Shown piece after piece: positions 637 to 49,644 of a stretch of 64,000 bases of DNA. The notes under the pieces were generated by a model that was given only the letters and a program-made list of their open reading frames with translations, did no database searches and was not told where the DNA came from. Within the stretch, counting starts at the first letter, position 1, and every line of letters begins with the position of its first letter. This DNA comes from a virus (Duplodnaviria; Caudoviricetes). The stretch is taken from the IMG/VR virus record IMGVR_UViG_3300037067_019009, positions 64,001 through 128,000 of that record; one strand, 5' to 3'. Position numbers and translations under genes: made by a program.

Positions 637-2769
637 TTAGCTCATGTCATGTGTAACCCTCCTACCCACATCTTGCAGAGTATAGTGGCTGCGAAGAGCA
701 AACTCAGCTTGCTTACCATTATTCCACTGACTTACCGGGCGCAGGTACCCAACTACGCGTGAATACACTTCTGTAGCGGCCTCACAGGTGGGGCATTTGT
801 CAACCTCGCCATCCAGATAACCATGTGTAGGACAGATAGAAAACGACGGGGTTATAGAGAAGTAAGGAAGCCTATAGTTATCGCAAACAGACCTCACGAA
901 CTTCTTTACCGCTTGTGGATCAGGCTCAGCCTCACCAAGAAACACGTGCAGACAGCTGCCGCCAGTGTAGAGTGTTTGCAGTTCATCCTGGGCATCCAGC
1001 ACCCCGAATATATCGAAAGTCGTGTCTACTGGGAGCTGCGTAGAGTTCGTATAAAACGGTTCAGGGCTTTCAGGGTACGCGAATTTTATATCCGGGTACA
1101 GCTGCTTATCCAGTCTGGCTAGCCGGTAACTGGTACCTTCCGCTGGTGTTGCCTCCAAGTTGTAAAGGCTGCCTGTCTCTTCCTGATAAACGGTAAGCTT
1201 ACCCCTCATGAAATTGAGAACCTCAACAGCAAAAAGCCGACCCTCTTCAGTCGATATATCACTTCCTAGCAGATTAATGCACGCCTCGTTCATTCCTACG
1301 AGCCCTATCGTTGAGAAGTGGTTGGTCCAGTACTTACCGAACCTCCTGAAAGTATCTCTCAAATAAAAACATGTGTATGGGTAAAGCTTCTTGCTGGTAA
1401 ACTGTTCAAGGACATCTCTTTTTATTTCGAGACTCTCTTTAGCTATATCCATAAGCTTACCTAGGCGTACAAAGAACTCCTCTTTGCTTTCAGATAGGTA
1501 GCCCAGCCTTGGCATGTTGATAGTGCAAACTCCCAGCGACCCAGTTAGGCTGTTGGCTCCGAACAGGCCACCACCTCTGCGCTCTAACTGGTCAATCCGT
1601 AGCGATAAGCGACAACACATGCTTCTCGTATCGTCCGGGGACATATCAGATCCTACAAAGTTGGCGAAATACGGAATGCCGTACTTCGCTGTAACTTCCC
1701 ACAGCTTATCTAACTCAAGGTTATTCCAATCAAAATCTTCCGTTATACTATAAGTTGGAATAGGGAAAGTAAATACTCTTCCACATGCATCCCCTTCGGC
1801 CATGACTTCTAGAAAAGCACAGTTGAGCATGGCCATTTCCTTTACAAACTCACCGTAGCATCTGTCCTTGTACTCGCCACCAATAACCACTGGCTGGCTG
1901 GCCAAATGTTCAGGGGGCTGCAAATCAAATGTCAAATTAGTGAAAGGCGTCTGAAATCCTACTCGCGTTGGTACATTTATATTAAAAATAAACTCTTGGA
2001 TCGCTTGCTTTAGTTCTTCATAACTAAGATCATCATAATACACAAACGGAGCTAGAAGCGTATCAAAGTTAGAGAAAGCAGAGGCTCCCGCTACTTCACC
2101 CTGTATAGTGTAGAAAAAGTTAACGATCTGGCCAAGAACAGCACGTAAATGTTTAGCAGGCTTAGATTCTATTTTACCGGCGGCCCCTCTAAACCCAGAG
2201 ACAAGTAGATCTTGCAAAGACCATCCGGAGCAGTAATTCGCAAGTAGACTCAAGTCGTGTATATGAAGATCGCCTCTCACATGGGCCGTCTTTACTCTCT
2301 TAGGATAAATCTTATTAAGCCAATAGGTCTCGCTTACTGTACTGGCCACATAGTTATTAAGTCCCTGCAACGAGTAGGCCATATTAGAGTTCTCTCTTAC
2401 TTTCCAATCAAGCCTTTCCAGATAGTTATCTACCAAAGCTAGATCGGACTTCTTTACAGCCTCTCGCATCTGGGCATGCTGTTCTCTATATATGATATAA
2501 GACTTGGCTGTCGCCCTAAACGGGGTAGCAAGCAGCACTTCTTCGACTATATCCTGCACCTGTTCTACCGAAGGTACCTCGTCTGTGACAGACACCTGCA
2601 TGAGAGATAGTACTTTGTTAGTCAAGGACTTAGCGATGTCGGTAGAAAACTCTCCAGATACTTTCCCAGCAGCCAGAAGAGCAGCAGTTATTTTCCTTGA
2701 ATCGAACTGGACGAGGTTACCGTCCCGCTTGCGTATTTGAGAGAATGCTGGTTTAGCATCAACGGCCAT
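637..2769 (-). CDS. nrdD: Class III anaerobic ribonucleoside-triphosphate reductase with N-terminal ATP cone
   Basis: IRKRDG...FDSRKI ATP cone; HIHDL; RSMCCRL; NLEATPAEG; CPTHG...CPTC; glycyl-radical YSRVVGYLRP. Start set at MAVDAK (ORF extends to 2823). Confidence 0.97.
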   Translation of the reverse strand: MAVDAKPAFSQIRKRDGNLVQFDSRKITAALLAAGKVSGEFSTDIAKSLTNKVLSLMQVSVTDEVPSVEQVQDIVEEVLLATPFRATAKSYIIYREQHAQMREAVKKSDLALVDNYLERLDWKVRENSNMAYSLQGLNNYVASTVSETYWLNKIYPKRVKTAHVRGDLHIHDLSLLANYCSGWSLQDLLVSGFRGAAGKIESKPAKHLRAVLGQIVNFFYTIQGEVAGASAFSNFDTLLAPFVYYDDLSYEELKQAIQEFIFNINVPTRVGFQTPFTNLTFDLQPPEHLASQPVVIGGEYKDRCYGEFVKEMAMLNCAFLEVMAEGDACGRVFTFPIPTYSITEDFDWNNLELDKLWEVTAKYGIPYFANFVGSDMSPDDTRSMCCRLSLRIDQLERRGGGLFGANSLTGSLGVCTINMPRLGYLSESKEEFFVRLGKLMDIAKESLEIKRDVLEQFTSKKLYPYTCFYLRDTFRRFGKYWTNHFSTIGLVGMNEACINLLGSDISTEEGRLFAVEVLNFMRGKLTVYQEETGSLYNLEATPAEGTSYRLARLDKQLYPDIKFAYPESPEPFYTNSTQLPVDTTFDIFGVLDAQDELQTLYTGGSCLHVFLGEAEPDPQAVKKFVRSVCDNYRLPYFSITPSFSICPTHGYLDGEVDKCPTCEAATEVYSRVVGYLRPVSQWNNGKQAEFALRSHYTLQDVGRRVTHDMS

Positions 2770-2936
2770 AAAAATAAGAAGCCCCCTATAAGTTAGTAAC
2801 AGCCGGTCTATGACCGGCCGCATACTATATTATAGGCATCATTTCCCTAAAACTAAGGAGGCTGGCTATTTTTTCTTATAATTATTTATAGTCTTGGAAC
2901 ATCCGTTACACATGTAACTCCAGCAAGCCCGTGCCG

Positions 2937-3542
2937 CTATACAAACATACGATCATAGAAAGCGAGACTATGCGTTTTATTGGGCGCGTCATTTATATAA
3001 AGATCCTTACCCTCAAACCTGGCGTACTTGAGACAGTCAGCGGAAAACCTAGTACTCTGCTTCGTCGTCAGCGAGTTACCTTCCGACATTTGTGTCCCTT
3101 TTACAGTAACTACGAATTCCTTCGTCGAGTCTACACATGCGATATTACACATGATGCCATCCATACATATGATACATGCCCTACTCACCAGGTTGCATAA
3201 CCGCCTATACTTAGCACCGAGTTTAGCATCCTCTTCCATATCCTCGAACTTGGCATTGACCCTCTCTACCAGGTTTACAAACCTAGAGATTGCACGGCTC
3301 CTGGCTAAGGCTTTGCCAATTTTCCTGTTCTTCTGATCCCCTGGGGAAAGTTTAGCTACCCCAACAGTCACGTAGGTCTTACCTTCATAGATTCCGGTGA
3401 TGGAAACTACTGTAGTACTTTCGGCATAGTCTACGAACTCACGTATCTCAGTAACCCCGATCCATTTTAGATAGTCTGGATCCGTTATAGATCCTTCCGG
3501 CAGAATGTCTTCCAGTTTATTGTTTATTAATCCTTTCCTCAT
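2937..3542 (-). CDS. Hypothetical protein
   Basis: 201-aa ORF, co-oriented, start overlaps upstream stop. Confidence 0.7.
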   Translation of the reverse strand: MRKGLINNKLEDILPEGSITDPDYLKWIGVTEIREFVDYAESTTVVSITGIYEGKTYVTVGVAKLSPGDQKNRKIGKALARSRAISRFVNLVERVNAKFEDMEEDAKLGAKYRRLCNLVSRACIICMDGIMCNIACVDSTKEFVVTVKGTQMSEGNSLTTKQSTRFSADCLKYARFEGKDLYINDAPNKTHSLAFYDRMFV

Positions 3543-3779
3543 TTACTAATCTCCTCCGTTATTTCTGAACCATCCCAGTGAAACTCCGTAGTCTCCGGGT
3601 TGCCCTCATCCACTATCTCATCATACCCGCACTGATCAAGAAGCGCCTCCGCCTCTTCCTTGCTGCCTGCATCTATACTGACTACCACATCACTCTCACG
3701 CGTGACCATTTCCCCGCGAAATAAATAAGTAGGCATAGCAATCCTCCTCTTCAACTAGCTGGCTTACCTGCACATTTCT

Positions 3780-4067
3780 CTATATGTCAAAGCGAAAATA
3801 AAGATACCCGCCATCCCCATCCTCCGCAATCAATAACGCATCACTCGGTATATCTATTTCTTCTATCTCTGTACCGTAGCGTAAAGCATCTTCCTCGCGG
3901 TAGGTAACCCAAATCACAGCTTCCGCCGGATCGTTTTCCAACGAGTCAAGCAGGCGGTCGGGTATATCTATTCTATTACCAAGTGTATCACGTTCGTACC
4001 TGATTACATCCGCGGCAGTAACTCCCTTAGAATGCGTGTACCCAGTATAAGCTCTGTACGTAATCAT
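3780..4067 (-). CDS. Hypothetical protein
   Basis: 95-aa ORF abutting neighbours. Confidence 0.6.
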   Translation of the reverse strand: MITYRAYTGYTHSKGVTAADVIRYERDTLGNRIDIPDRLLDSLENDPAEAVIWVTYREEDALRYGTEIEEIDIPSDALLIAEDGDGGYLYFRFDI

Positions 4068-4287
4068 TTAATCAGTTACCTGCTGACCAACATTGGCGGT
4101 GTTAAGTAGTTCCCTGACCTCGTCCCAGTCGGTATGCTCCTTCATCAACCTGCGTATTTCCTTCGTAAGTTGTGGTACTACTTTTCTCGCCATGGCCGCG
4201 GCGATGATAGTATCCTGCCCAGCGCATGCTTTGTCTATAGCATCTAGAGCCGCACACGTAAATCTCATCTTATCCATACAACACTCC

Positions 4288-4569
4288 CTACAAATCAAGA
4301 TCATTCAGCTTCATATCAGGATTGGAGGTCAATCTAACAACCCACTCCTGATGCCCAACTTCCGCCAGTTCTCTGGACTCATACTGCTGAACTATTATCC
4401 AAGAGCCTTTATCCCTGCTAATTCCCGTCTCCCACGTCTCTGTATCATACGCGATGCACGTATCTACTACAACCCCGCTATTAAGCTTAGTATTGAATAC
4501 GTCGTTTCTAAACGGATTACCTATTGTCATGGCCCAAAACAGCTTTAATGCGAAGGGGTCTTTATTCAC
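4288..4569 (-). CDS. Hypothetical phage protein
   Basis: 93-aa ORF coupled to the phosphoesterase gene. Confidence 0.6.
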   Translation of the reverse strand: MNKDPFALKLFWAMTIGNPFRNDVFNTKLNSGVVVDTCIAYDTETWETGISRDKGSWIIVQQYESRELAEVGHQEWVVRLTSNPDMKLNDLDL

Positions 4570-5150
4570 TACTTACTTATTTCCTTTCCAACTCCATGAG
4601 TAAGCCGGTAGTCGATATCTAGCAGCCTCTCTACCACATCCGTTAGTAGATAAGGTTTGAACTCATTGGTGTCTACTCCGACATCTATACTCCTACCATA
4701 ACCATCTAAGGTACCATGAGAATGACCGAACAAATGAAAAGACCCATAATGGCTACAGTCCCACACCCGCATAGCGTAATGGCTCATGACCAAAGGCACC
4801 GGGTACCCCTCACCAATATCTATAGATATGGTATAAAGATCATACACCATATCAAACAACCACTCATCTATCGCCTTATCATGGTTCCCCCGTATCAGTA
4901 TCTTTTTCCCGGGTGGCGATCCTGGGTACCCCATATCGGTAAAGAACTCCTGATATAAGGGGTACTCCTTTCTGGGGTTCCACCAGAAGTCACCAAGAAT
5001 GTACACGGTATCTTCTTCGGATATCGTAGAGTACCAGTTGTCCAGGATAGTTCTATTCATATCTTCTACAGAAGAAAATGGGCGCCCACAGTACTTTATA
5101 ATATTAGTATGATTGAGATGGAGATCAGCGGTTACAAAAACCTTACTCAT
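4569..5150 (-). CDS. Calcineurin-like metallophosphoesterase
   Basis: Motifs ADLH, LGDF, RGNHD, SHY, GHSHG, DVGVD. Confidence 0.92.
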   Translation of the reverse strand: MSKVFVTADLHLNHTNIIKYCGRPFSSVEDMNRTILDNWYSTISEEDTVYILGDFWWNPRKEYPLYQEFFTDMGYPGSPPGKKILIRGNHDKAIDEWLFDMVYDLYTISIDIGEGYPVPLVMSHYAMRVWDCSHYGSFHLFGHSHGTLDGYGRSIDVGVDTNEFKPYLLTDVVERLLDIDYRLTHGVGKEISK

Positions 5151-32312: not shown

Positions 32313-32969
32313 CTACTGAGATTTGCTCAGCTCTATGTACAAGTTAACGTACTTCCTATATTCCTCTATCTTCTCGGCAGATAAGCGGTAATCACGCGCT
32401 ATCTCTTCTCCCTTTTCTAACCAGTCTTCTACAGAAAGAACACGACATCCTATCTTTATCCACCCAGGAGCAGGTATACAAAACGAGTATGAACTCCCCT
32501 GTATATAGAGAGGAGATCCACCCCAGCTTCCTTCATACACTACAGCATCACTGTGCACTTTAGCATTCCCTCGTAATATAGCAGTGCCATAAACCATAGC
32601 ATTGCCATATACGTAGGCAGTGTCACATACTTCAGCGTGGCCAAACACTTTAGCGTATTGGCATACCTTAGCGCTGCCATGTATTTCAGCATGACCATAG
32701 ATCTGAGCACTATCAGAAACTAAGGCGCCGCCGAACACTTTAGCATCATTACGCACTATGGAATTATCATGCACTTGCGCATAATCATATACCATAGCAT
32801 CTGGTCCAATATACGCTGTATCACTGACTAATGCCGTGTTTTGTACCCAGCCATCACCATTTGGGTGGTGATGCCACGTCTCTTCCGTGGCATCGGGAAA
32901 TCGTTCTTGTAATTCTTTTAAGGTCATGCCAGTCTCCCGTGGCATATATCGCATTTTATTCATATGCAT
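32313..32969 (-). CDS. Left-handed beta-helix (hexapeptide repeat) protein
   Basis: Repeated AxVY(G/D)x hexapeptides, GDGWV, IKIGC. Confidence 0.85.
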   Translation of the reverse strand: MHMNKMRYMPRETGMTLKELQERFPDATEETWHHHPNGDGWVQNTALVSDTAYIGPDAMVYDYAQVHDNSIVRNDAKVFGGALVSDSAQIYGHAEIHGSAKVCQYAKVFGHAEVCDTAYVYGNAMVYGTAILRGNAKVHSDAVVYEGSWGGSPLYIQGSSYSFCIPAPGWIKIGCRVLSVEDWLEKGEEIARDYRLSAEKIEEYRKYVNLYIELSKSQ

Positions 32970-32971
32970 AT

Positions 32972-33228
32972 CTTAGGTTATAGGTGTGCTACTACGCTAA
33001 AGACTCCAACGGCTTCGCCTGGCTTCTTACCTTCAGACCTCGCAACGGCTAGAGGATCTTTCACCGTACCAGGTATTGTATACTACCATGGGTATACACG
33101 CAGGATACATCCGTTTTCGAGCCTGCGCTGACTTTTAACCAGGATACCTTATTCGCTTTGTACCTGGACTCCACTTGTCACTCTTTAAAGGATGGCTGCC
33201 TCTAAGCCCACCTCCCTAATAACCTAAG
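32972..33228 (-). ncRNA. 23S rRNA L11-binding-domain (H43/H44) mimic with 182-nt insert
   Basis: GGAGGUGGGCUUAGAGGCAGCCAUCCUUUAAAGAGUG [insert] CGUAGUAGCACAC, closed by CUUAGGUUAU/AUAACCUAAG. Confidence 0.8.
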
Positions 33229-33494
33229 TCTTATTAGTGTAATCATCAATCATACGGTCTAGTGCTTTCTCAGCCTTCCTCATCTGCTTTTTAGTGGGCT
33301 TCTTCGGAAGACTATCCAGCGCCCTGATGAACTTCTCCGCTTTCCTCAGCTGTTCGACGGATAGTGGCCTTTTCTTACCAGAAGTCCACACGAATCCGCA
33401 TGCACAGCATGTGTACTTGGGTCTCCCATCCAGGGCGGAGGATGCTTTGATGCCTCTATGCAAGCACCTCGGGCAGCTCAACCCACATCTCCAC

Positions 33495-34634
33495 TTATGG
33501 ATCGTCATGCTCGCTCTCCGAGTAGTCATTTATCACAAGGATAAAACTGGTGATAGCACTAGCCACTATAGTGAGAAGAAAAGTAACTATGATCATCCAT
33601 GTAGGAGGCTCCACTGAGAGATAACTAAACTGCCGAAAATCCTTACGTATGGGTCCTCTAGTCTTAGATACCTCCAAAGTCAACCACTTAGCTAAAGCGA
33701 CCGGGTCAAACCTATTCATGCATGATACAAGTTGCTTCGTCCGGGCCTTCAGCACCTCCTGTTCCGTCCAGGATACTACTTTGCACCAACTCACATGATC
33801 GCCTTTCCCCAGGCCAACGATCACGATAAATTCGTTCTTATTTCCACCCTTCCAGTAAGCTTCCTGGTCGAGTGCAGCCGCATAGGGTTTGTCATGAAAA
33901 ATAAGCAGCCAAACTCTGACCTTCTTACTGGCACCATATCTGGAATTAAGTATCTGAAGCTGCCTTTCGGCCTCGACCCGGCCGCTATTCAGGCGTCCGA
34001 GTATGACGGGGCATGTATACCCATTAGGTTCTGGGTAATCGAAGAGATGAAAAGTCTTAGGATTCACTGACCGGAAGTTAAGAATGCTGGAAGATGCCTG
34101 TACCATATTCACATAACTACGCAAATCTACTGTAGGTTCAAGGGACTTATCGTCACCACCCCAGTAAGTGACAAAACAGTCTCCATCATTACTATGGTAA
34201 TCCCTACTTAGTTCTACGAACTGCTTGTTCCCGAACTTTCTAACGAGCCGGAGAAAAGCCAACTCATTCACATTTCTGGTAGCCCCATTAGAATCTGTAA
34301 TTACCCAGTAAGGCTCGTGATCATCTACATCATAAGCATGCTGGTAACCTACCAGAATCAGGTTACCTTTCGAGTCAGTAACATATATTGGGTGTTGGCA
34401 TGAAACTCTCTCATCCCATGCTTCGAAGTATTCCGCTTTCTGAACATACCCTCCCCAGTACTCGATATCGCGCGTCTGTACCGACTCCGACACTGTCACA
34501 CAGATGACTATCAGGATAAAAGCAACCACGAACGGTACGGCGTATTCCCACCAGACCATCCTCCGCTTGAACCATTTGTACAGCACAAACATAGTGATGA
34601 ATGGTATAACGAGCGAAAACCACACAAGCGTCAT
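33495..34634 (-). CDS. Membrane protein with large soluble domain (TPM-like)
   Basis: Two N-terminal TMs, one C-terminal TM, YWKGGNKNE motif; follows the LemA-like gene. Confidence 0.65.
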   Translation of the reverse strand: MTLVWFSLVIPFITMFVLYKWFKRRMVWWEYAVPFVVAFILIVICVTVSESVQTRDIEYWGGYVQKAEYFEAWDERVSCQHPIYVTDSKGNLILVGYQHAYDVDDHEPYWVITDSNGATRNVNELAFLRLVRKFGNKQFVELSRDYHSNDGDCFVTYWGGDDKSLEPTVDLRSYVNMVQASSSILNFRSVNPKTFHLFDYPEPNGYTCPVILGRLNSGRVEAERQLQILNSRYGASKKVRVWLLIFHDKPYAAALDQEAYWKGGNKNEFIVIVGLGKGDHVSWCKVVSWTEQEVLKARTKQLVSCMNRFDPVALAKWLTLEVSKTRGPIRKDFRQFSYLSVEPPTWMIIVTFLLTIVASAITSFILVINDYSESEHDDP

Positions 34635-36854: not shown

Positions 36855-38519
36855 CTACTGTTTCATTGATAATTTATACAGTCTATTAGCCTGAATGGCC
36901 ATCAACGTATTACCATCGGCTACCAGTTGCATATCGGCGGAAAACGCCGGGTCTGAAAATCTTCTAGTTCCTGTGCTTCCCTTCCTCGAAGAGAATAGCA
37001 CAATGTCGGTTCCTTCTACCATCACTACAGCCACTCCGCTATCGAGTACAGCCATACTTATTCCAGTATAAGTTATATCCTCATGCTTTATAATGTCATA
37101 AGAGGAGTAGTCATTGGAAAACCGGAATATGAACATATCATATACGGATTGTTTTTCTCCAACCACAGCCAGAACTCCACGCTCGAACTTGGCATCAACT
37201 ACCTTATAGCCCTTCAGTTCAGGTATCTTGACATTATAGGTACATCCGGCCTTGGGTAAAATCGTAGCGAACCACATGCCCAAAGCATCTTGCATAGCCA
37301 CTCCATCAAACATAGTAGTAGACTTAGATGTCACGTTAGCAACCATCGTAGCCGCTGGGAATACACTTGGGTACAACTCCTTAAGTTCAATATGGAGTAG
37401 CTTATTACCCTGCTTAACATACACATCACCTCCGTAGCTGAACATATCATCCACATCAAGAATCATGGGTATTTCTCTCGGAGAATCGATGCCTGCCATT
37501 TTCAGCATGTCCTGCTTCCATACAGCCACACGCTTACCGGAGGTTGTCCTGGCTATATGGAAATCCCCGCCCCCAAACACCCTCTTTGCTCCACTATAAG
37601 TACCAGTCGAGGTGATGGCCAAACCACACCTATAGCTTATTATATTAGAGCTATACTCATGCACCAGCTCCATATTAATAAGCCCTGCGGTTACTATAGG
37701 CTTGCTTACAATCGTGGTAAATACGATAGCCTCTATGCCCTCCGGAGGAGGAATACGTTCTCCCCCTTCCAACACCCGCAGGTACCACTGAAAATACCCG
37801 GAAGGTATTACGTCAAATGGTTGACATACTGGCGGAACAGACACATCTTTGTTAAGGACCGATAGATTGGCCAGCATCCTTTCGTCTAAGCCACTTACTC
37901 TCGGATGGCTGCCTTTATAAGGATGTATCCCAGTGAACATCTGAAAGGATACTATCGCAAAAGAAAACCAATCGGTTCCTTCGTTGAATACACCTGGCTT
38001 AGAGTGCCTATCTCGCACACTCTCCATGAGCACAGGAGCCGCGTAATGTGGACACCCGTAAGAATCTACATCTATGAAATAAATGGTATCGAATTTTGAG
38101 CTGACAAGAAAGTTCATCTCATTTAAATCTACAAGGAGTATACTGCAGTCATGAATGCCTTGCACTCCGGTACGCTTGCGATGTACTAGTTTGTTAATTA
38201 TCTCCGGGGTGATACCATGCTTAGTCCTGAAAACTGCAGGAAACAATTTGCAGAGCGGGTAAGAATCCTTGATGTACCGCATAGTGTAGCCGATTGGCTC
38301 ACCACTGCCGCTGAGCAGAATATCTTCCGGCTTGATAACATCCGGGTTAGTAATCCTGGAAAGCTCCCTGATCTTGCCAACAGGAATCATCTTGCTTGGA
38401 TCATGATAGATTTTGTAAGCTTCAAACCCACGGACATATATCGAGCCTTCCCCACCAGTTGCAATAAAGTCATTCTGCGTTAGTGTGACTTTACTTTTAC
38501 CCTGCACGTATACATCCAT
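36855..38519 (-). CDS. Ser/Thr protein kinase with beta-rich C-terminus
   Basis: GGEGSIY, AYKIY, VDLNEMNFLV, IDVDS, DWFSFA. Confidence 0.9.
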   Translation of the reverse strand: MDVYVQGKSKVTLTQNDFIATGGEGSIYVRGFEAYKIYHDPSKMIPVGKIRELSRITNPDVIKPEDILLSGSGEPIGYTMRYIKDSYPLCKLFPAVFRTKHGITPEIINKLVHRKRTGVQGIHDCSILLVDLNEMNFLVSSKFDTIYFIDVDSYGCPHYAAPVLMESVRDRHSKPGVFNEGTDWFSFAIVSFQMFTGIHPYKGSHPRVSGLDERMLANLSVLNKDVSVPPVCQPFDVIPSGYFQWYLRVLEGGERIPPPEGIEAIVFTTIVSKPIVTAGLINMELVHEYSSNIISYRCGLAITSTGTYSGAKRVFGGGDFHIARTTSGKRVAVWKQDMLKMAGIDSPREIPMILDVDDMFSYGGDVYVKQGNKLLHIELKELYPSVFPAATMVANVTSKSTTMFDGVAMQDALGMWFATILPKAGCTYNVKIPELKGYKVVDAKFERGVLAVVGEKQSVYDMFIFRFSNDYSSYDIIKHEDITYTGISMAVLDSGVAVVMVEGTDIVLFSSRKGSTGTRRFSDPAFSADMQLVADGNTLMAIQANRLYKLSMKQ

Positions 38520-39359: not shown

Positions 39360-39636
39360 CTTTCGGAGATGATACTTACGAATTACAAACCTAGAGAAGG
39401 TGGGAAGGTCTAAATGCTAGTACATAGCACTTCCTAATGGACCTCCCACCCCACTACAGCAGTGTAGTCTGCTGTCGACTGCAGTGTTTATGGTGCACAC
39501 TACCAAAACCGCCTCCATGTTTCGTCAGGAGGCCCATCGGTGATACGGCCATACAACCGTGACGCCATTTAGCTCGCGCCCTAGCCAGTTGCCTATATTA
39601 GGGTAAGGCAACATCTCAACTAGCCACTACTTATGT

Positions 39637-39709
39637 TATTCCCGCTTAGACTCGAACTAAGATCTTCCTCGTTACAAACGAGGGTGTTACCTACTTACAC
39701 CACGGGAAT
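39637..39709 (-). tRNA. tRNA-Thr(UGU)-like, atypical, no CCA
   Basis: AUUCCCG UG GUGU AAGUAGGUA ACAC CCUCG UUUGUAA CGAGG...CUUAG UUCGAGU CUAAG CGGGAAU A; one nucleotide short at the D/anticodon junction. Confidence 0.65.
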
Positions 39710-39746
39710 AGCCTGCAGCTGACGTCTAAGCTGCATACCCCCAGTG

Positions 39747-40471: not shown

Positions 40472-42142
40472 TTATATGTTTCCCAAAGCGAATTGGGAAA
40501 TAAGATTTGGAGTAGCGGTATCAAACCCCACCAAATCTAGCATCCCAGAGTCATCCGGGTCTGCGATAGAGAACCCATTGCTTACCATCCCTACCACTAC
40601 GGATCTGGCGTTAGGGTTGATCTTCTTCCGGTACTCAGCGAGAGCCTGGGTGGGATGAATCTTTCCAGCCCAAGTCTCGCTATCCGTGTACACAACGAAT
40701 AAATCTATATTTAGATTGTTCTTTAATGCGTATAAAATAGGCAAAGAGCAATCTGTGCCACCGGCATCCAGTCCCTCTATATATTGGCATACGTCGCTTA
40801 TCCGTTGCTTACTACTGATATCAAGAGCAGAGACACTAGGAATACGACGATTAGTAGAGTCGGCTGTAAAACCTGTCACGACGACGTTCTTCTCAACAGC
40901 CTGGGTAACTAAAGCCATCGCAGCAGAACCAACTCTTGGAGTCAGTCCTGGGCAACCAGCAATGTTCACCCAAGTCATCGACGCAGATAAATCAAGAGCC
41001 AGCATTATATTTTTTCCGGTTGGCTCAACGTTTCCAAATGCAGTGTAGAATGCTCTATTGAGCGCGTCCACTACCTGTGTTACTGGCGTCCAGCTCCCAC
41101 TGCCCCTTACTCCCATCCCTGATCCGTATGTCAGAAGCGCCTTGAGTACATCTATAGGATGGACTCTACTCTTCCTGATCATCTCAACATCTGATAGCTT
41201 ATCTACCACGAAGTTGATAATGTCGAACTTCCCTGGAGCTAATAACCCACTCTTACTAAAGTTGCCCAGGTTCCTGAGTATTGCATGAAAAGGCATCTCC
41301 TGCAACAACTCCAGCTGCACATCCGGATCGCTCTTGAACTGAGAAGGTATGCACTCATGTGGAAGATTATAATCCTTAATTAAAGATATTATACCTTTCT
41401 TCCCGTCTTCAGTTTTAGCTTGCTCGAACGCGTAAATTATCTTAGCTGGAGTACCAGCAAACGTTTTTGCATCCAAGCCCTCGCGCACAACCCCGCGCTT
41501 CTTGTCTTCCCATCCATTAGTGCCATGTGTACACCACTGAAGGATGTTAGAGAAGAGATCGGAGTCCGCTTTAACATGAGATAGCCTGAGCAAATCTCTA
41601 TGGCTCCACCCATCACGCTGCTGGTACTTAGTAACTTGCAGTGACAAGGCACCGGCCGACTTACCTAAGTACCAATCCGCAACAGCGTTCTTCAGTAGGC
41701 GCCCCCATCCGCGAAGGTTAGTAACGTATTCAGCGAAGTGGAATAAGTGAGTTCCGATCCTGCAGACTTGGGGCAAAGCCGCAGCAGCTGCTTTCTTTGT
41801 TTCCACATCTCCAAAACTCATACACGCGGCGAGGGCGAAGATACAAGGGTCATTCTTTGGCGCTCGTCCAGCCTGAGAGATATCGACTATCTCTTTAACC
41901 AACTCGACGCCACTTGCCCTAATTACATTCTCCATAGCAGCAAAACTCTTCAGAGTCATATCTTTCTCTGTAGCATAATAGCTGCCACCCTCAGTGCCGA
42001 GGATCAAGAACCTCTTCACCTTCATCCACTCACTCACTTCGAATGAGTATCCCCCTGCCTGATTCTCCACCATCGACTTACCTGGAATAGGCTGGGTTTG
42101 CGGAGTTTTCTTTACAGACACATGCTTACTGTAGTTAGTCAT
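40472..42142 (-). CDS. rsr: Ro60/Rsr TROVE-domain RNA-binding protein with vWA domain
   Basis: NQAGGY, RFLILGTEGGSYY, VCRIGTHLF, KYQQRDGWSHRDLLRLSH, RVHP, ALDLSASM, GGTDC, TDSET, GFD. Confidence 0.97.
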   Translation of the reverse strand: MTNYSKHVSVKKTPQTQPIPGKSMVENQAGGYSFEVSEWMKVKRFLILGTEGGSYYATEKDMTLKSFAAMENVIRASGVELVKEIVDISQAGRAPKNDPCIFALAACMSFGDVETKKAAAAALPQVCRIGTHLFHFAEYVTNLRGWGRLLKNAVADWYLGKSAGALSLQVTKYQQRDGWSHRDLLRLSHVKADSDLFSNILQWCTHGTNGWEDKKRGVVREGLDAKTFAGTPAKIIYAFEQAKTEDGKKGIISLIKDYNLPHECIPSQFKSDPDVQLELLQEMPFHAILRNLGNFSKSGLLAPGKFDIINFVVDKLSDVEMIRKSRVHPIDVLKALLTYGSGMGVRGSGSWTPVTQVVDALNRAFYTAFGNVEPTGKNIMLALDLSASMTWVNIAGCPGLTPRVGSAAMALVTQAVEKNVVVTGFTADSTNRRIPSVSALDISSKQRISDVCQYIEGLDAGGTDCSLPILYALKNNLNIDLFVVYTDSETWAGKIHPTQALAEYRKKINPNARSVVVGMVSNGFSIADPDDSGMLDLVGFDTATPNLISQFALGNI

Positions 42143-47141: not shown

Positions 47142-47218
47142 CTAGGAAACAAAGTGGGAACTGAAGAGAGTTGTAGCACGGATCATCGATTCCAAAGGAG
47201 ATCTACCCTCTGGAATAG

Positions 47219-47295
47219 TCGGCGGGTAAGGATTTGAACCCCAGTCCTCCTACTAGTACATTACTGTAGACACTCTACCACTGAGCTACCCGCCG
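47219..47295 (-). ncRNA. tRNA-like RNA with enlarged 12-nt anticodon loop
   Basis: CGGCGGG UA GCUC AGUGGUA GAGU G UCUAC [AGUAAUGUACUA] GUAGG AGGAC UGGGG UUCAAAU CCUUA CCCGCCG A. Confidence 0.7.
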
Positions 47296-48813
47296 GTGTT
47301 TAAACTGCCCCTACTCATATGCTCCCCATAAAACCTTCAGCTCTTAACGGCGGCGTAATTTCCCACCTTTACCCAGAAGGGAACCATTTTCCTGAAGCCC
47401 CCAGTTTGAAGCTTGCACGGTATAAACACACAATACGCAGTGCTGCTACTGACTCCGACACTTATGATCTTCGTGCCGGGATATCCAAGCACCATCGTGT
47501 CACTTACTTCAATGATCTTTACAAGCTCGCAGTCTTGCTTAAGTAGCAACCTTCTTATCGCTACTTCTACTTTTGTGATCCACATTGCTAATTTCATTTT
47601 ATTTGTCCTTTTCATTATAGGCCGTACTTGTCGTAATATGCCCGCAAAAGAAAAACTTATAGTAGACTCCTACCTTCAAATCGATAAACCTTCGTCTTGG
47701 CATAGCACTTCAACCCTTTTTGTAAATCATATCCCTATAGCCTTTACTTAGCTTTCCTACTTTAACTTTTCCATGTGTTTATCCGCAATGACTTGAGGAT
47801 AATTACTAGACACGCTTATGGTTCTATTACATACTCCAACTCGGAGTCTGCCTTCTACAAAAGCATCCATGAATGATTTCTCGAATTCGTTCTCGGGTAT
47901 AATATTTATAAAAGCCGCTGTGGGATCAACTAGATTTTGCGAAAAGGTAACTTTCACTATATATTCCTTCTTACTTCTTACCACTCCAACTTATTTCCCA
48001 CTGAACTTTAAACCAAGTCCAGGGCTTATACCAACAACATCTACCAACTCTCCTAGCAGACACAGCTATAAACCTCGGGGAGGGTACGCCATCCTTCGGG
48101 CAGACTACAGGAACATTACCTCGACTAAAAACCGTCTTACATTGTGGACATTGCTCACAAAACTCGAACTTCCCCATGGTTGTGCCCCTCAGCGAGTTAT
48201 ATAATTATACGTACACGCTCTAGTTATAGAATAAGTATTGTAGATTTTGTCCTGCTACACGACATATACAGTGATGTCATCCGAATGCTGCCCCGCTGCT
48301 GCTGGTCGTTGACTACAAAAGTAGTAGGATATCCTCCCACAACTCATCAGCATCTAGTTCCCCTGTGTTCGGTTGACAGGACAAATATAAAGACAAGACA
48401 ACAAGCTATCTTGAAGGATATATTCTCGGGAGTTACATGCAAAGTAAACCCAATCCTCAACATGCTTACCCACAGGGGTGTTTCCATATTGGGAATGTCA
48501 AGATAACTACTCTACCCACAACCTTGCTCTACTGCCTTGCCTATTGATCCACCAGGAGATCATCCCTTGCAGTATCAATCTCTACTACTAGGCTACTAGA
48601 CCATTATTCTGCCACCGCAGAAAAATTAGCAATAAATAGAACAAAGACGACCAGTAGAATCTCACTGGTACCATAGTTTCCATCACAGGCGGTGGTAATA
48701 CAAGCTATAGCGGAGCCAAGGGCTCCTACTAAATCTATAATAGCAACAACTGATTTCATAACATCATACCTTCCATTCATCTAATAGAATAGACTAGCTA
48801 TAAATATAAGCCA

Positions 48814-48905
48814 TCAGCGGGGAAGGACTCGAACCCCCGACCTTGCACATGTTACAGTGCTTTCTCCTTAAATAGGAGTCGCTCTACCAACTGAGCTACC
48901 CGCTG
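48814..48905 (-). ncRNA. tRNA-like RNA with two hairpins in place of the anticodon arm
   Basis: CAGCGGG UA GCUC AGUUGGUA GAGC..CUCCU AUUUA AGGAG..GCAC UGUAACAU GUGC..GGGGG UUCGAGU CCUUC CCCGCUG A. Confidence 0.7.
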
Positions 48906-49644
48906 ACGAAACATCAAGTAAGTTATAGGCTTTCCCTCAATCCGTGACCTTACACTTTTGGTAAATCCGACGCTGACGCTCTAGGTTTTGCGCAAGATTA
49001 TGCTCTGTAAGACTCGGAATACCAAGAAACTCCCTGACACACTTCCTCTTACAGTCCATACAGTCATGTAGACTCGAAAAGCAGCAGAATTTATCGAAGC
49101 CTCCGGCATATGCGGCAAGCATCGAAGTAAGCATCTCGGCAGCGTCCTCAGGATCAAGAAATTCATATCCTACCGGGAGGCTAATATGCATACGCTGATA
49201 TATAGTCCAGTAATCCTTATTATGTTCCGGATGTGGAATGACATAACTATACCGGAACCAAGGGTCATCGTTTCGCTTATTAACACACTCGGGAATTAAA
49301 GAGATGCATACTTCCGGCATCCAGGAGGATTGTGTAATCACAATGCGCTCAGAATGTGGAACGATATCTATAATATAAAAGAAGCGGTCCTTATCATTAC
49401 CAGCGAATTGAAGTACATACTTCTTACCAGTACTGGCCTGATTAAATTCGCAAACAGCTTCTTTAATAGGAGCAATAAGCTTATCATGCAGAGCTTTCTG
49501 CTGGCTTTGAGCCTCCTCTAATTCCACAACTTTCTGCTTCTCAACACCTTGTATAAAGGACCTGGCCCTGTTTACGATACCAATTACTTCATTCATCTTG
49601 CCCATGCACTTACCCCACTTGTAGATACGCTCGCAAAAGAAGAT

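Follow-up and report, generated by a model that had tools for sequence, protein, structure and literature searches.

The window, meaning the whole 64-kb stretch of DNA analysed here, lies in a 212,668-bp virus record (CheckV, 84% complete). In a gap between two minus-strand ORFs, this uncultured 212-kb phage carries a putative noncoding RNA of 257 nt, both ends of which make up a self-closed copy of the uL11-binding site of 23S rRNA. In the bacterial ribosome this site, the GTPase-associated centre (GAC), consists of the H42 tip, H43 and H44 (E. coli 1051-1108) and is a 58-nt domain that binds uL11 and thiostrepton (PMC1802607). The element occurs once in the 212,668-bp record, and its neighbours and parts are as follows, with rRNA positions in E. 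coli numbering.

33224-33529, minus strand: ORF of 101 aa
32972-33228, minus strand: whole GAC-mimic RNA element, 257 nt, self-closed, between the ORFs 33224-33529 and 32313-32969
33215-33228, minus strand: closing stem, 5' strand, H42-like, counterpart of about 1042-1055, with a single bulged U (direct reading)
33189-33213, minus strand: copy of H43 (1057-1081) with loop UUAGAGGCA (Rfam LSU match and family covariation)
33180-33188, minus strand: junction UUAAA (U1082:A1086 turn) and G1087, A1088, G1089 and U1090, the 5' strand of lower H44
32998-33179, minus strand: insert of 182 nt between U1090 and G1091 (family frame)
32985-32997, minus strand: upper H44 hairpin GC-GUAGUA-GC (1091-1100), then A1101, C1102 and A1103
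32972-32984, minus strand: closing stem, 3' strand, equivalent to 1104-1116 (direct reading)
32313-32969, minus strand: ORF of 218 aa, 3' of the element, encoding a hexapeptide-repeat / beta-solenoid protein

Read along the minus strand, the order is CUUAGGUUAUUAGG (14 nt), GAGGUGGGCUUAGAGGCAGCCAUCCUUUAAAGAGU, the 182-nt insert (33179 to 32998), GCGUAGUAGCACA and CCUAUAACCUAAG (13 nt). GAGGUGGGCUUAGAGGCAGCCAUCCUUUAAAGAGU corresponds to G1056 to U1090 and GCGUAGUAGCACA to G1091 to A1103. CCUAUAACCUAAG pairs with CUUAGGUUAUUAGG over 13 bp with one bulged U, so that the closing stem is CUUAGGUUA-U-UAGG with CCUA-UAACCUAAG. All the sequences quoted for the minus strand of 32972-33228 in the original prediction are present, and the closing stem that it described is real, but its count of 10 bp plus UAGG/CCUA used one A twice. 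The length of 182 nt that it gave for the insert is correct; the boundary (33178-32997) is ambiguous by one G, and the frame of the family described below places it at 33179-32998. The equivalents of A1067 (33203, in the H43 loop) and A1095 (32993, in upper H44) are retained, as had been noted. In the ORF downstream, the likelier start as read from the sequence is 32927, which is preceded by a GGGAGA Shine-Dalgarno. On the minus strand around the element, the scans predicted neither a sigma-70-type promoter nor an intrinsic terminator.

The resemblance to 23S rRNA was quantified with the Rfam bacterial LSU model (RF02541). The 5' half matched positions 1097-1144 of the model, the H43 region, with 16.9 bits (E=0.0045 in a 501-nt search). 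These were the sole matching positions, and the score compares with a gathering score of 50, so the element is not a full-length 23S rRNA with a contiguous H44. A 27-nt family pattern had a single occurrence in the window, and 100 dinucleotide shuffles yielded none, even when three mismatches were allowed. After removal of the insert, the 58-nt core was compared with two real 23S loci, an E. coli-type locus (L084, LSU rRNA according to Rfam) and a Paenibacillus-type locus (L008), and was identical at 43/58 and 45/58 positions, respectively. Over 1056-1103, identity rose to 40/48 and 42/48 (83-88%). The E. coli GAC sequence quoted in the original prediction agrees with the E. coli-type locus. 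It had also stated that no other rRNA surrounds the element, and Rfam found no rRNA gene elsewhere in the 64-kb window.

The phage element and the bacterial GAC are alike in the helices, in the hairpin loops with A1067 and A1095, and in the tertiary positions, which comprise U1060/A1088, 1082:1086, and G1071 and C1072 with the pairs 1091-1092/1099-1100. They differ in three respects. The phage element is free-standing and virus-encoded, and a generic closing stem replaces the continuation into H42 and the rest of 23S rRNA. Its H44 is a three-way junction, with a helix inserted at 1090|1091 and a UUUR linker. Position 1101 is A in the phage element, whereas it is U in real 23S rRNA.

Relatives of the element were then collected from cultured phages, viral contigs and bacterial assemblies. 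A blastn search of phage records with the H43 half matched unannotated DNA of eight phages, namely Cronobacter phage GAP32, Xanthomonas phages XaC1 and XacN1, Aeromonas phage 4_4572, and Pseudomonas phages UNO-G1W1, pf16, Milchi and Astolliot. Seven of them were read (Astolliot being the exception); in each, a gap of 106-222 nt leads to the H44 half and a closing stem that differs in sequence. Scans of IMG/VR returned 93 stretches with the 5' half and at least 120 with the 3' half. A1101 and the UUUR linker of the family set the 3' half pattern apart from real 23S rRNA, in which it is absent. When 185,579 species genomes were scanned, this pattern gave 106 matches, 40 of which were whole elements, mostly on MAG contigs from many phyla, plus isolates such as Flintibacter muris. 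The other 66 were without the 5' half and were discarded as chance matches of an 18-nt pattern. The resulting set comprises at least 172 non-identical members (8 cultured phages, at least about 124 IMG/VR contigs and 40 bacterial-assembly contigs), and the split layout of closing stem, H43 and interrupted H44 is common to all 172. The original prediction had proposed a search for both halves and the closing stem, co-occurring around variable inserts in other phages, and this is the arrangement found in the 172 members.

Contiguous real rRNA was found at three of the collected loci (L008, L038 and L084), each with an uninterrupted GAC and rRNA on both sides; all others had the split layout. L008 is Paenibacillus phage Pd_22F (MZ092003.1), in which an uninterrupted real 23S lies in unannotated DNA at about 82.9-85.2 kb. 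Staphylococcus phage records OR845016.1 and OR850018.1 likewise contain uninterrupted, unannotated real 23S. The real 23S in these three phage records is host contamination or captured host DNA and lies outside the mimic family. Among the true members, Milchi (L005:1529-1660) and UNO-G1W1 (L003:1573-1680) have short 'hypothetical protein' CDSs annotated across the element on the opposite strand in their GenBank records, which probably represent gene-calling errors over an RNA gene that had gone unrecognised. The family is absent from Rfam 15. A full-text search found no published description; its coverage is slight for subscription journals, so a prior description is possible.

Covariation was evaluated in an alignment of 48 sequences against shuffled and slid-partner controls. 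Paired cells reached 90.8%, compared with 68.7% in shuffles (0 of 500 as high), and the covariation score was 0.574, compared with 0.150 for shuffled alignments and 0.09-0.17 for slid partners. Both sides had changed in 17 of the 26 pairs. This signal backs the closing stem, H43, the 1082:1086 pair and the third helix at the base of the insert. In the closing stem, all four Watson-Crick types occur at each position, the pairs of 1047-1055 with 1104-1112 all covary, and 9/9 scored pairs vary on both sides, which makes the sequence of this stem arbitrary.

The core was examined further in the 3'-anchored set of 109 members, in which the 5' half is not forced to be constant. Pair 1058:1080 was UA in 44, GC in 32, AU in 22 and CG in 6 members. 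Pair 1057:1081 was AU in 99 and CG in 9, and pair 1064:1074 was CG in 102 and AU in 6. The turn pair 1082:1086 was UA in 71, CG in 25 and AU in 10. U1060 with A1088 was kept in 108/109. G1071, C1072 and the pairs 1091-1092/1099-1100 are near-invariant in the family. A1101, which can pair with U1090, is a family signature (67/70 members) and is present in the window, whereas position 1101 is U in the real 23S loci and in the Rfam consensus. The window copy conforms to the family consensus in its H43, its 1082:1086 turn and its U1060 with A1088. It differs from the consensus at 5/50 core positions, each a site of known variability (1058:1080, which is G:C in the window, 1061, 1070 and 1096).

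These patterns come from a real structured RNA with the GAC fold, of which we are nearly certain. We regard the fold as established, together with the family, the selection acting on it and its association with phages. A selected, free-standing phage RNA that copies the GAC was the central claim of the original prediction, and it is borne out by compensatory changes in each helix across 172 non-identical relatives. Random decay of the H43 and H44 residues in homologues, named in advance as the outcome that would speak for a dead rRNA fragment, is clearly absent. Three readings would deny that the element is an RNA of its own kind and would see in it a captured piece of rRNA in decay, a piece of rRNA split by an intron or intervening sequence, or a leader that regulates the downstream gene in cis; even taken together, they are highly improbable. 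For decay, the compensatory changes and the near-invariant tertiary positions over 172 members are decisive counter-evidence. Capture from a host was assessed in Flintibacter muris, whose own 23S GAC (L305:1560-1615) departs from the usual sequence (GCCACUCAUUAAAAGAG, one nucleotide more near 1078 and A at 1083). The copy in its prophage keeps the family consensus, with C1082:G1086. Because the prophage copy is consensus while the host GAC is idiosyncratic, the mimic copies are not recent captures of host rRNA.

The insert divides the core at the same place throughout the family, invariably at U1090|G1091. It opens with a stem of its own, in which base pairs 1, 2 and 3 form in 132/132, 130/132 and 121/132 members, respectively, as GC, AU, UA or CG, and it ends in a linker that is UUUG or UUUA in 127/132. 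With this opening stem and linker, H44 becomes a three-way junction, and the third helix is a defining feature of the family. No insert-free member was present among the 5'-anchored matches. Pairing of the UUUR linker with A1084-A1086 was considered and rejected, as the linker stays constant when 1086 changes. Past its base, the insert is hypervariable in sequence, with 76 clusters among 132 members, and its size ranges from 27 to 369 nt (median about 140). The smallest inserts are plain 7-bp hairpins of 27-29 nt, and about 37 members share a class-A 3' module, CACCCCGGAAACGGUAAGG.

The window insert has the features of the family, namely the U1090|G1091 position, its own stem and the UUUR linker, here UUUA (32998-33001) at its 3' end. 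Its basal stem pairs the trinucleotide GAC (33177-33179) with GUC (33002-33004), followed by an internal loop and then GUGG with CCGU; the 3 bp before the internal loop are fewer than in most members. The insert is a singleton. Its base alone resembles those of L110, L073 and L020, and blastn and nhmmer found no similarity to other inserts past this basal module, so that the interior is unique to this phage. Its similarity to real rRNA is at chance level. Close relatives of the window version were sought with a viral-contig pattern that ran from the 5' half into the insert, with a metagenome pattern, and with the neighbouring 379-aa protein as query, and none was found. The insert had been called rich in hairpins, a description that thermodynamics does not support: folding energy was no better than that of shuffles for the insert (z=-0.15) or for the whole element (z=-1.27).

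An interrupted rRNA fragment would draw some support from the flanks of the insert, which are U and G in 7/8 of the first-read members, as in group I introns. Against it, Rfam gave no match even at E up to 10 (group I, RF00028, included), inserts of 27 nt are too short for self-splicing, and the last base of the window insert is A, not G, if U1090 is taken as the upstream boundary. A spliced intron, which the original prediction had entertained through a comparison of spliced and unspliced forms, is thus disfavoured by the hypervariable or minimal inserts and by the lack of any Rfam intron match.

The same inserts bear on the possibility that the GAC fold, perhaps locked by uL11, serves as a nuclease-resistant handle and that the activity resides in the variable insert. 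Such a scaffold would account for insertion at one permissive position, for inserts that are often long, and for the modules that some of them carry (CACCCCGGAAACGGUAAGG in about 37 members, a sarcin-ricin-type hairpin in a few). We nevertheless regard it as very unlikely. The 132 inserts fall into 76 unrelated clusters, that of the window is a singleton with no detectable relative, and the smallest members have only a 7-bp hairpin of 27-29 nt to offer as cargo. The GAC is also conserved far beyond the needs of a handle, down to its tertiary pairs and the loops of both hairpins. A uL11-stabilised cargo domain, as suggested earlier, is disfavoured on the same counts, as the insert falls into 76 clusters among 132 members and can be a bare hairpin of 27-29 nt.

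The genomic setting was surveyed next. A tRNA gene lies within 300 nt of the element in 78/132 members and is on the same strand every time, which fits a stable RNA that is made and processed with tRNAs. The window has no tRNA gene within 3 kb of the element, and the nearest (39635-39710) is 6.4 kb away. The phage has six tRNA genes in all, among which ARAGORN reports a tRNA-Ile with anticodon AAU (47218-47295, minus strand) and an unusually long tRNA-Lys(UUU) of 94 nt (48813-48906, minus strand). The window copy is a typical member of the family, unusual solely in its tRNA-free setting and its unique insert. Across the 172 loci, no neighbouring protein family recurs (maximum 7/172), and the top neighbour clusters are unrelated (TerD, SSB, AAA and YunG-like). 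Within the window, a 554-aa ORF (36855-38519, minus strand) gave a weak, sub-threshold Pkinase match (E=3e-4; 20.6 bits, with the cut-off at 31.7).

This survey also bears on a cis-regulatory leader, a reading suggested by the position of the element directly upstream of a same-strand ORF. In the family, the element is followed by tRNAs or by unrelated ORFs, and no gene recurs there, which argues against it. Two known RNA classes were considered and rejected separately. For a ribosomal-protein leader (L10_leader, RF00557), Rfam gave no match, the downstream ORF encodes a hexapeptide/beta-solenoid protein, and no L11 or L12 gene was found in the genome. For a Y RNA or YrlA, Rfam gave no match, the Ro60 gene of the phage is 7 kb away, and TROVE occurs in 4/50 member records. 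The Ro60 orthologue itself (40472-42142, minus strand) is well supported (TROVE, E=1e-38; Ro60 vWA domain, E=1e-54).

Possible partners were sought in 50 member records, a sample of carriers only. Ribosomal_L11 was found in 0/50, an L12-like domain in 4/50 (2 above the cut-off) and Ro60 (TROVE) in 4/50, and in this carrier sample none of them was associated with the element. In the genome of the window phage, no RelA_SpoT, uL11 or L12 was found. Since uL11 is encoded neither by the member records nor by the phage, any uL11 bound must be that of the host, and any protein partner is most likely a host protein.

Two individual members lie beside genes of RNA repair. In the Flintibacter muris DSM 110149 prophage (L273), the element is located between a tail-fibre gene and an RNA-repair enzyme, a 730-aa kinase-phosphatase-RNA-ligase (phrog_8238, E=3e-225; 2522-4714, plus strand) whose gene starts 1.2 kb downstream of the element. 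In XacN1, an annotated 2'-5' RNA ligase (L007:829-1479) lies immediately upstream of the element. RNA-repair neighbours did not recur across the 172-locus survey.

Some inserts contain a second piece of the ribosomal factor-binding site. A hairpin of the sarcin-ricin loop (SRL) type occurs in 2-3 of 132 inserts, against about 0.1 expected by chance. It reads AGUACGGGAGGAA in L028 and AGUACGAGAGGAAC in L170, each with a closed stem, and both are long members (inserts of 313 and 301 nt, respectively). Some lineages thus imitate the other half of the factor-binding site too (GAC and SRL). The window phage does not: its insert has no SRL-type motif, and elsewhere in its genome the partial matches are at chance level.

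Taken as a whole, the data are best explained by a stable, trans-acting imitation of the GAC that works off the ribosome and titrates a host component that binds the GAC, a reading to which we assign a probability of about 0.55. The element would be the gene for a stable, trans-acting noncoding RNA of a large phage family. Its ends would fold into a self-contained GAC, with the H42 tip, H43, H44 and the tertiary pairs, and a third helix would leave the 5' strand of H44. In the window phage, the RNA would probably be cut from a long minus-strand transcript, and in most relatives it would probably be made and processed together with tRNAs. It would then imitate the structure of the GAC away from the ribosome. 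The most likely direct ligand would be host uL11, for which the RNA contact surface is intact, and in some lineages translational GTPases may bind too. The predicted outcome is titration of a GAC-binding host component during infection, with the RNA acting as a sponge or a decoy. We infer that the RNA is transcribed and processed, binds uL11 and has a physiological effect.

The contact surfaces of uL11 on 23S rRNA are known in detail. The C-terminal domain interface comprises 1058-1060, 1062-1065, 1075-1083 and 1088, and the N-terminal domain interface comprises 1059-1064, 1068-1070 and 1095-1098 (PMC1802607). The 58-nt domain has a compact fold that the C-terminal domain of L11 stabilises (PMC1802607). 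In the family, the uL11 contact positions are 83-100% conserved or covarying, and the insertion point 1090|1091 is outside both lists. Judging from these conserved contact nucleotides, uL11 binding by the element is somewhat more probable than the reading as a whole. The H42-like stem is a plain helix, with neither conserved sequence nor irregularity, and would therefore be unlikely to bind uL10. The H43 loop is more variable, with A1067 replaced by G in about 11% of members and G1068 by A in about 22%. Variation of this extent exceeds that expected in real 23S rRNA, and the contacts of the H43 loop may accordingly be less important in the phage RNA.

The target could also be something other than uL11. 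The RNA might be a decoy for a translational GTPase or stringent factor (EF-G, IF2, RF3 or RelA), or for a host immune effector or toxin with the GAC of 23S rRNA as the site that it reads, modifies or cleaves, so that the RNA would protect or retune host ribosomes. We consider this improbable, with several observations in its favour. A few relatives (L028 and L170) add an SRL-type hairpin, the other half of the factor-binding site, and EF-G reportedly binds isolated GAC and SRL oligoribonucleotides, going by the title of Munishkin and Wool 1997 (cited in PMC3496166). The family is frequent in tRNA arrays, and one role proposed for such arrays in phages is the replacement of host RNAs hit by defence nucleases; RNA-repair genes also adjoin two copies (L273 and XacN1). 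On the other side, neither the insert nor the genome of the window phage has a convincing SRL, and members with an SRL are a small minority. The loop positions touched by factors, A1067 and G1068, are somewhat relaxed in the family, and to our knowledge no defence system that targets the GAC has been described.

Under the favoured reading, in which a host component that binds the GAC is titrated, the candidate roles would be titration of uL11, by which RelA activation would be lost, titration of a factor, or a decoy for a ribosome-directed defence. We rate any specific physiological role as less likely than not.

Several known systems resemble the phage RNA in part. Synthetic GAC and SRL oligoribonucleotides and 58-nt fragments keep the isolated fold and, going by the title of Munishkin and Wool 1997, reportedly bind EF-G off the ribosome. 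By analogy, they would be a laboratory precedent for the proposed action of the phage RNA. They are man-made and have no biological role, whereas the phage RNAs are natural and selected and always carry an extra helix. Bacterial 23S intervening sequences (H25, H45) are also extra helices, variable in length and sequence, that enter a conserved rRNA helix at one set position. They lie at other helices, in full-length rRNA genes, and are excised by RNase III, whereas the carrier here is a mini-domain of about 75 nt.

Ribosomal-protein autoregulatory leaders that mimic rRNA sites, such as the L10 leader RF00557 (surveyed in PMC3616713), are likewise off-ribosome RNAs that imitate an rRNA site to bind a ribosomal protein, as the phage RNA is predicted to do. 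Those leaders are cis-acting 5' UTRs of cellular operons with a loose resemblance to rRNA, whereas the phage element is a near-exact copy, is unlinked to any ribosomal-protein gene, and is found in phages, usually among tRNA genes. Other phage RNA mimics and decoys include a pseudo-ToxI antitoxin RNA (PMC3475682), tRNA-like Y RNAs such as YrlA (PMC4201824) and phage tRNA arrays. These are also small structured RNAs that imitate a host RNA, often together with tRNA genes, but the imitated object here is a functional centre of rRNA. We found no published example of a virus-encoded, free-standing natural copy of an rRNA functional centre.

Herein, we describe a phage RNA family that imitates the docking site of translation factors, as the GAC alone in most lineages and as the GAC plus the sarcin-ricin loop in a few. 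In a broader interpretation that is rather doubtful at present, large phages would carry a transferable RNA gene that imitates this docking site and captures the host reader, which would be a new class of viral countermeasure. Candidate readers are uL11, a translational GTPase, a stringent factor or a ribosome-directed immune effector. At minimum, an abundant family of structured RNAs is lacking in Rfam and in phage annotations. Should the inference be correct, the family would make titration of uL11 or EF-G in vivo testable in the cultured phages pf16, UNO-G1W1, GAP32 and XacN1, together with the questions of whether the stringent response limits large phages and whether defence systems that read the GAC exist. 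The 1090|1091 position is a naturally validated insertion point for engineering a uL11-GAC module. If the inferred role is right, phage evolution has produced a free-standing copy of a functional ribosomal centre that now extends over hosts of several phyla; this would represent a new device for host take-over or anti-defence and a natural experiment on the GAC off the ribosome.
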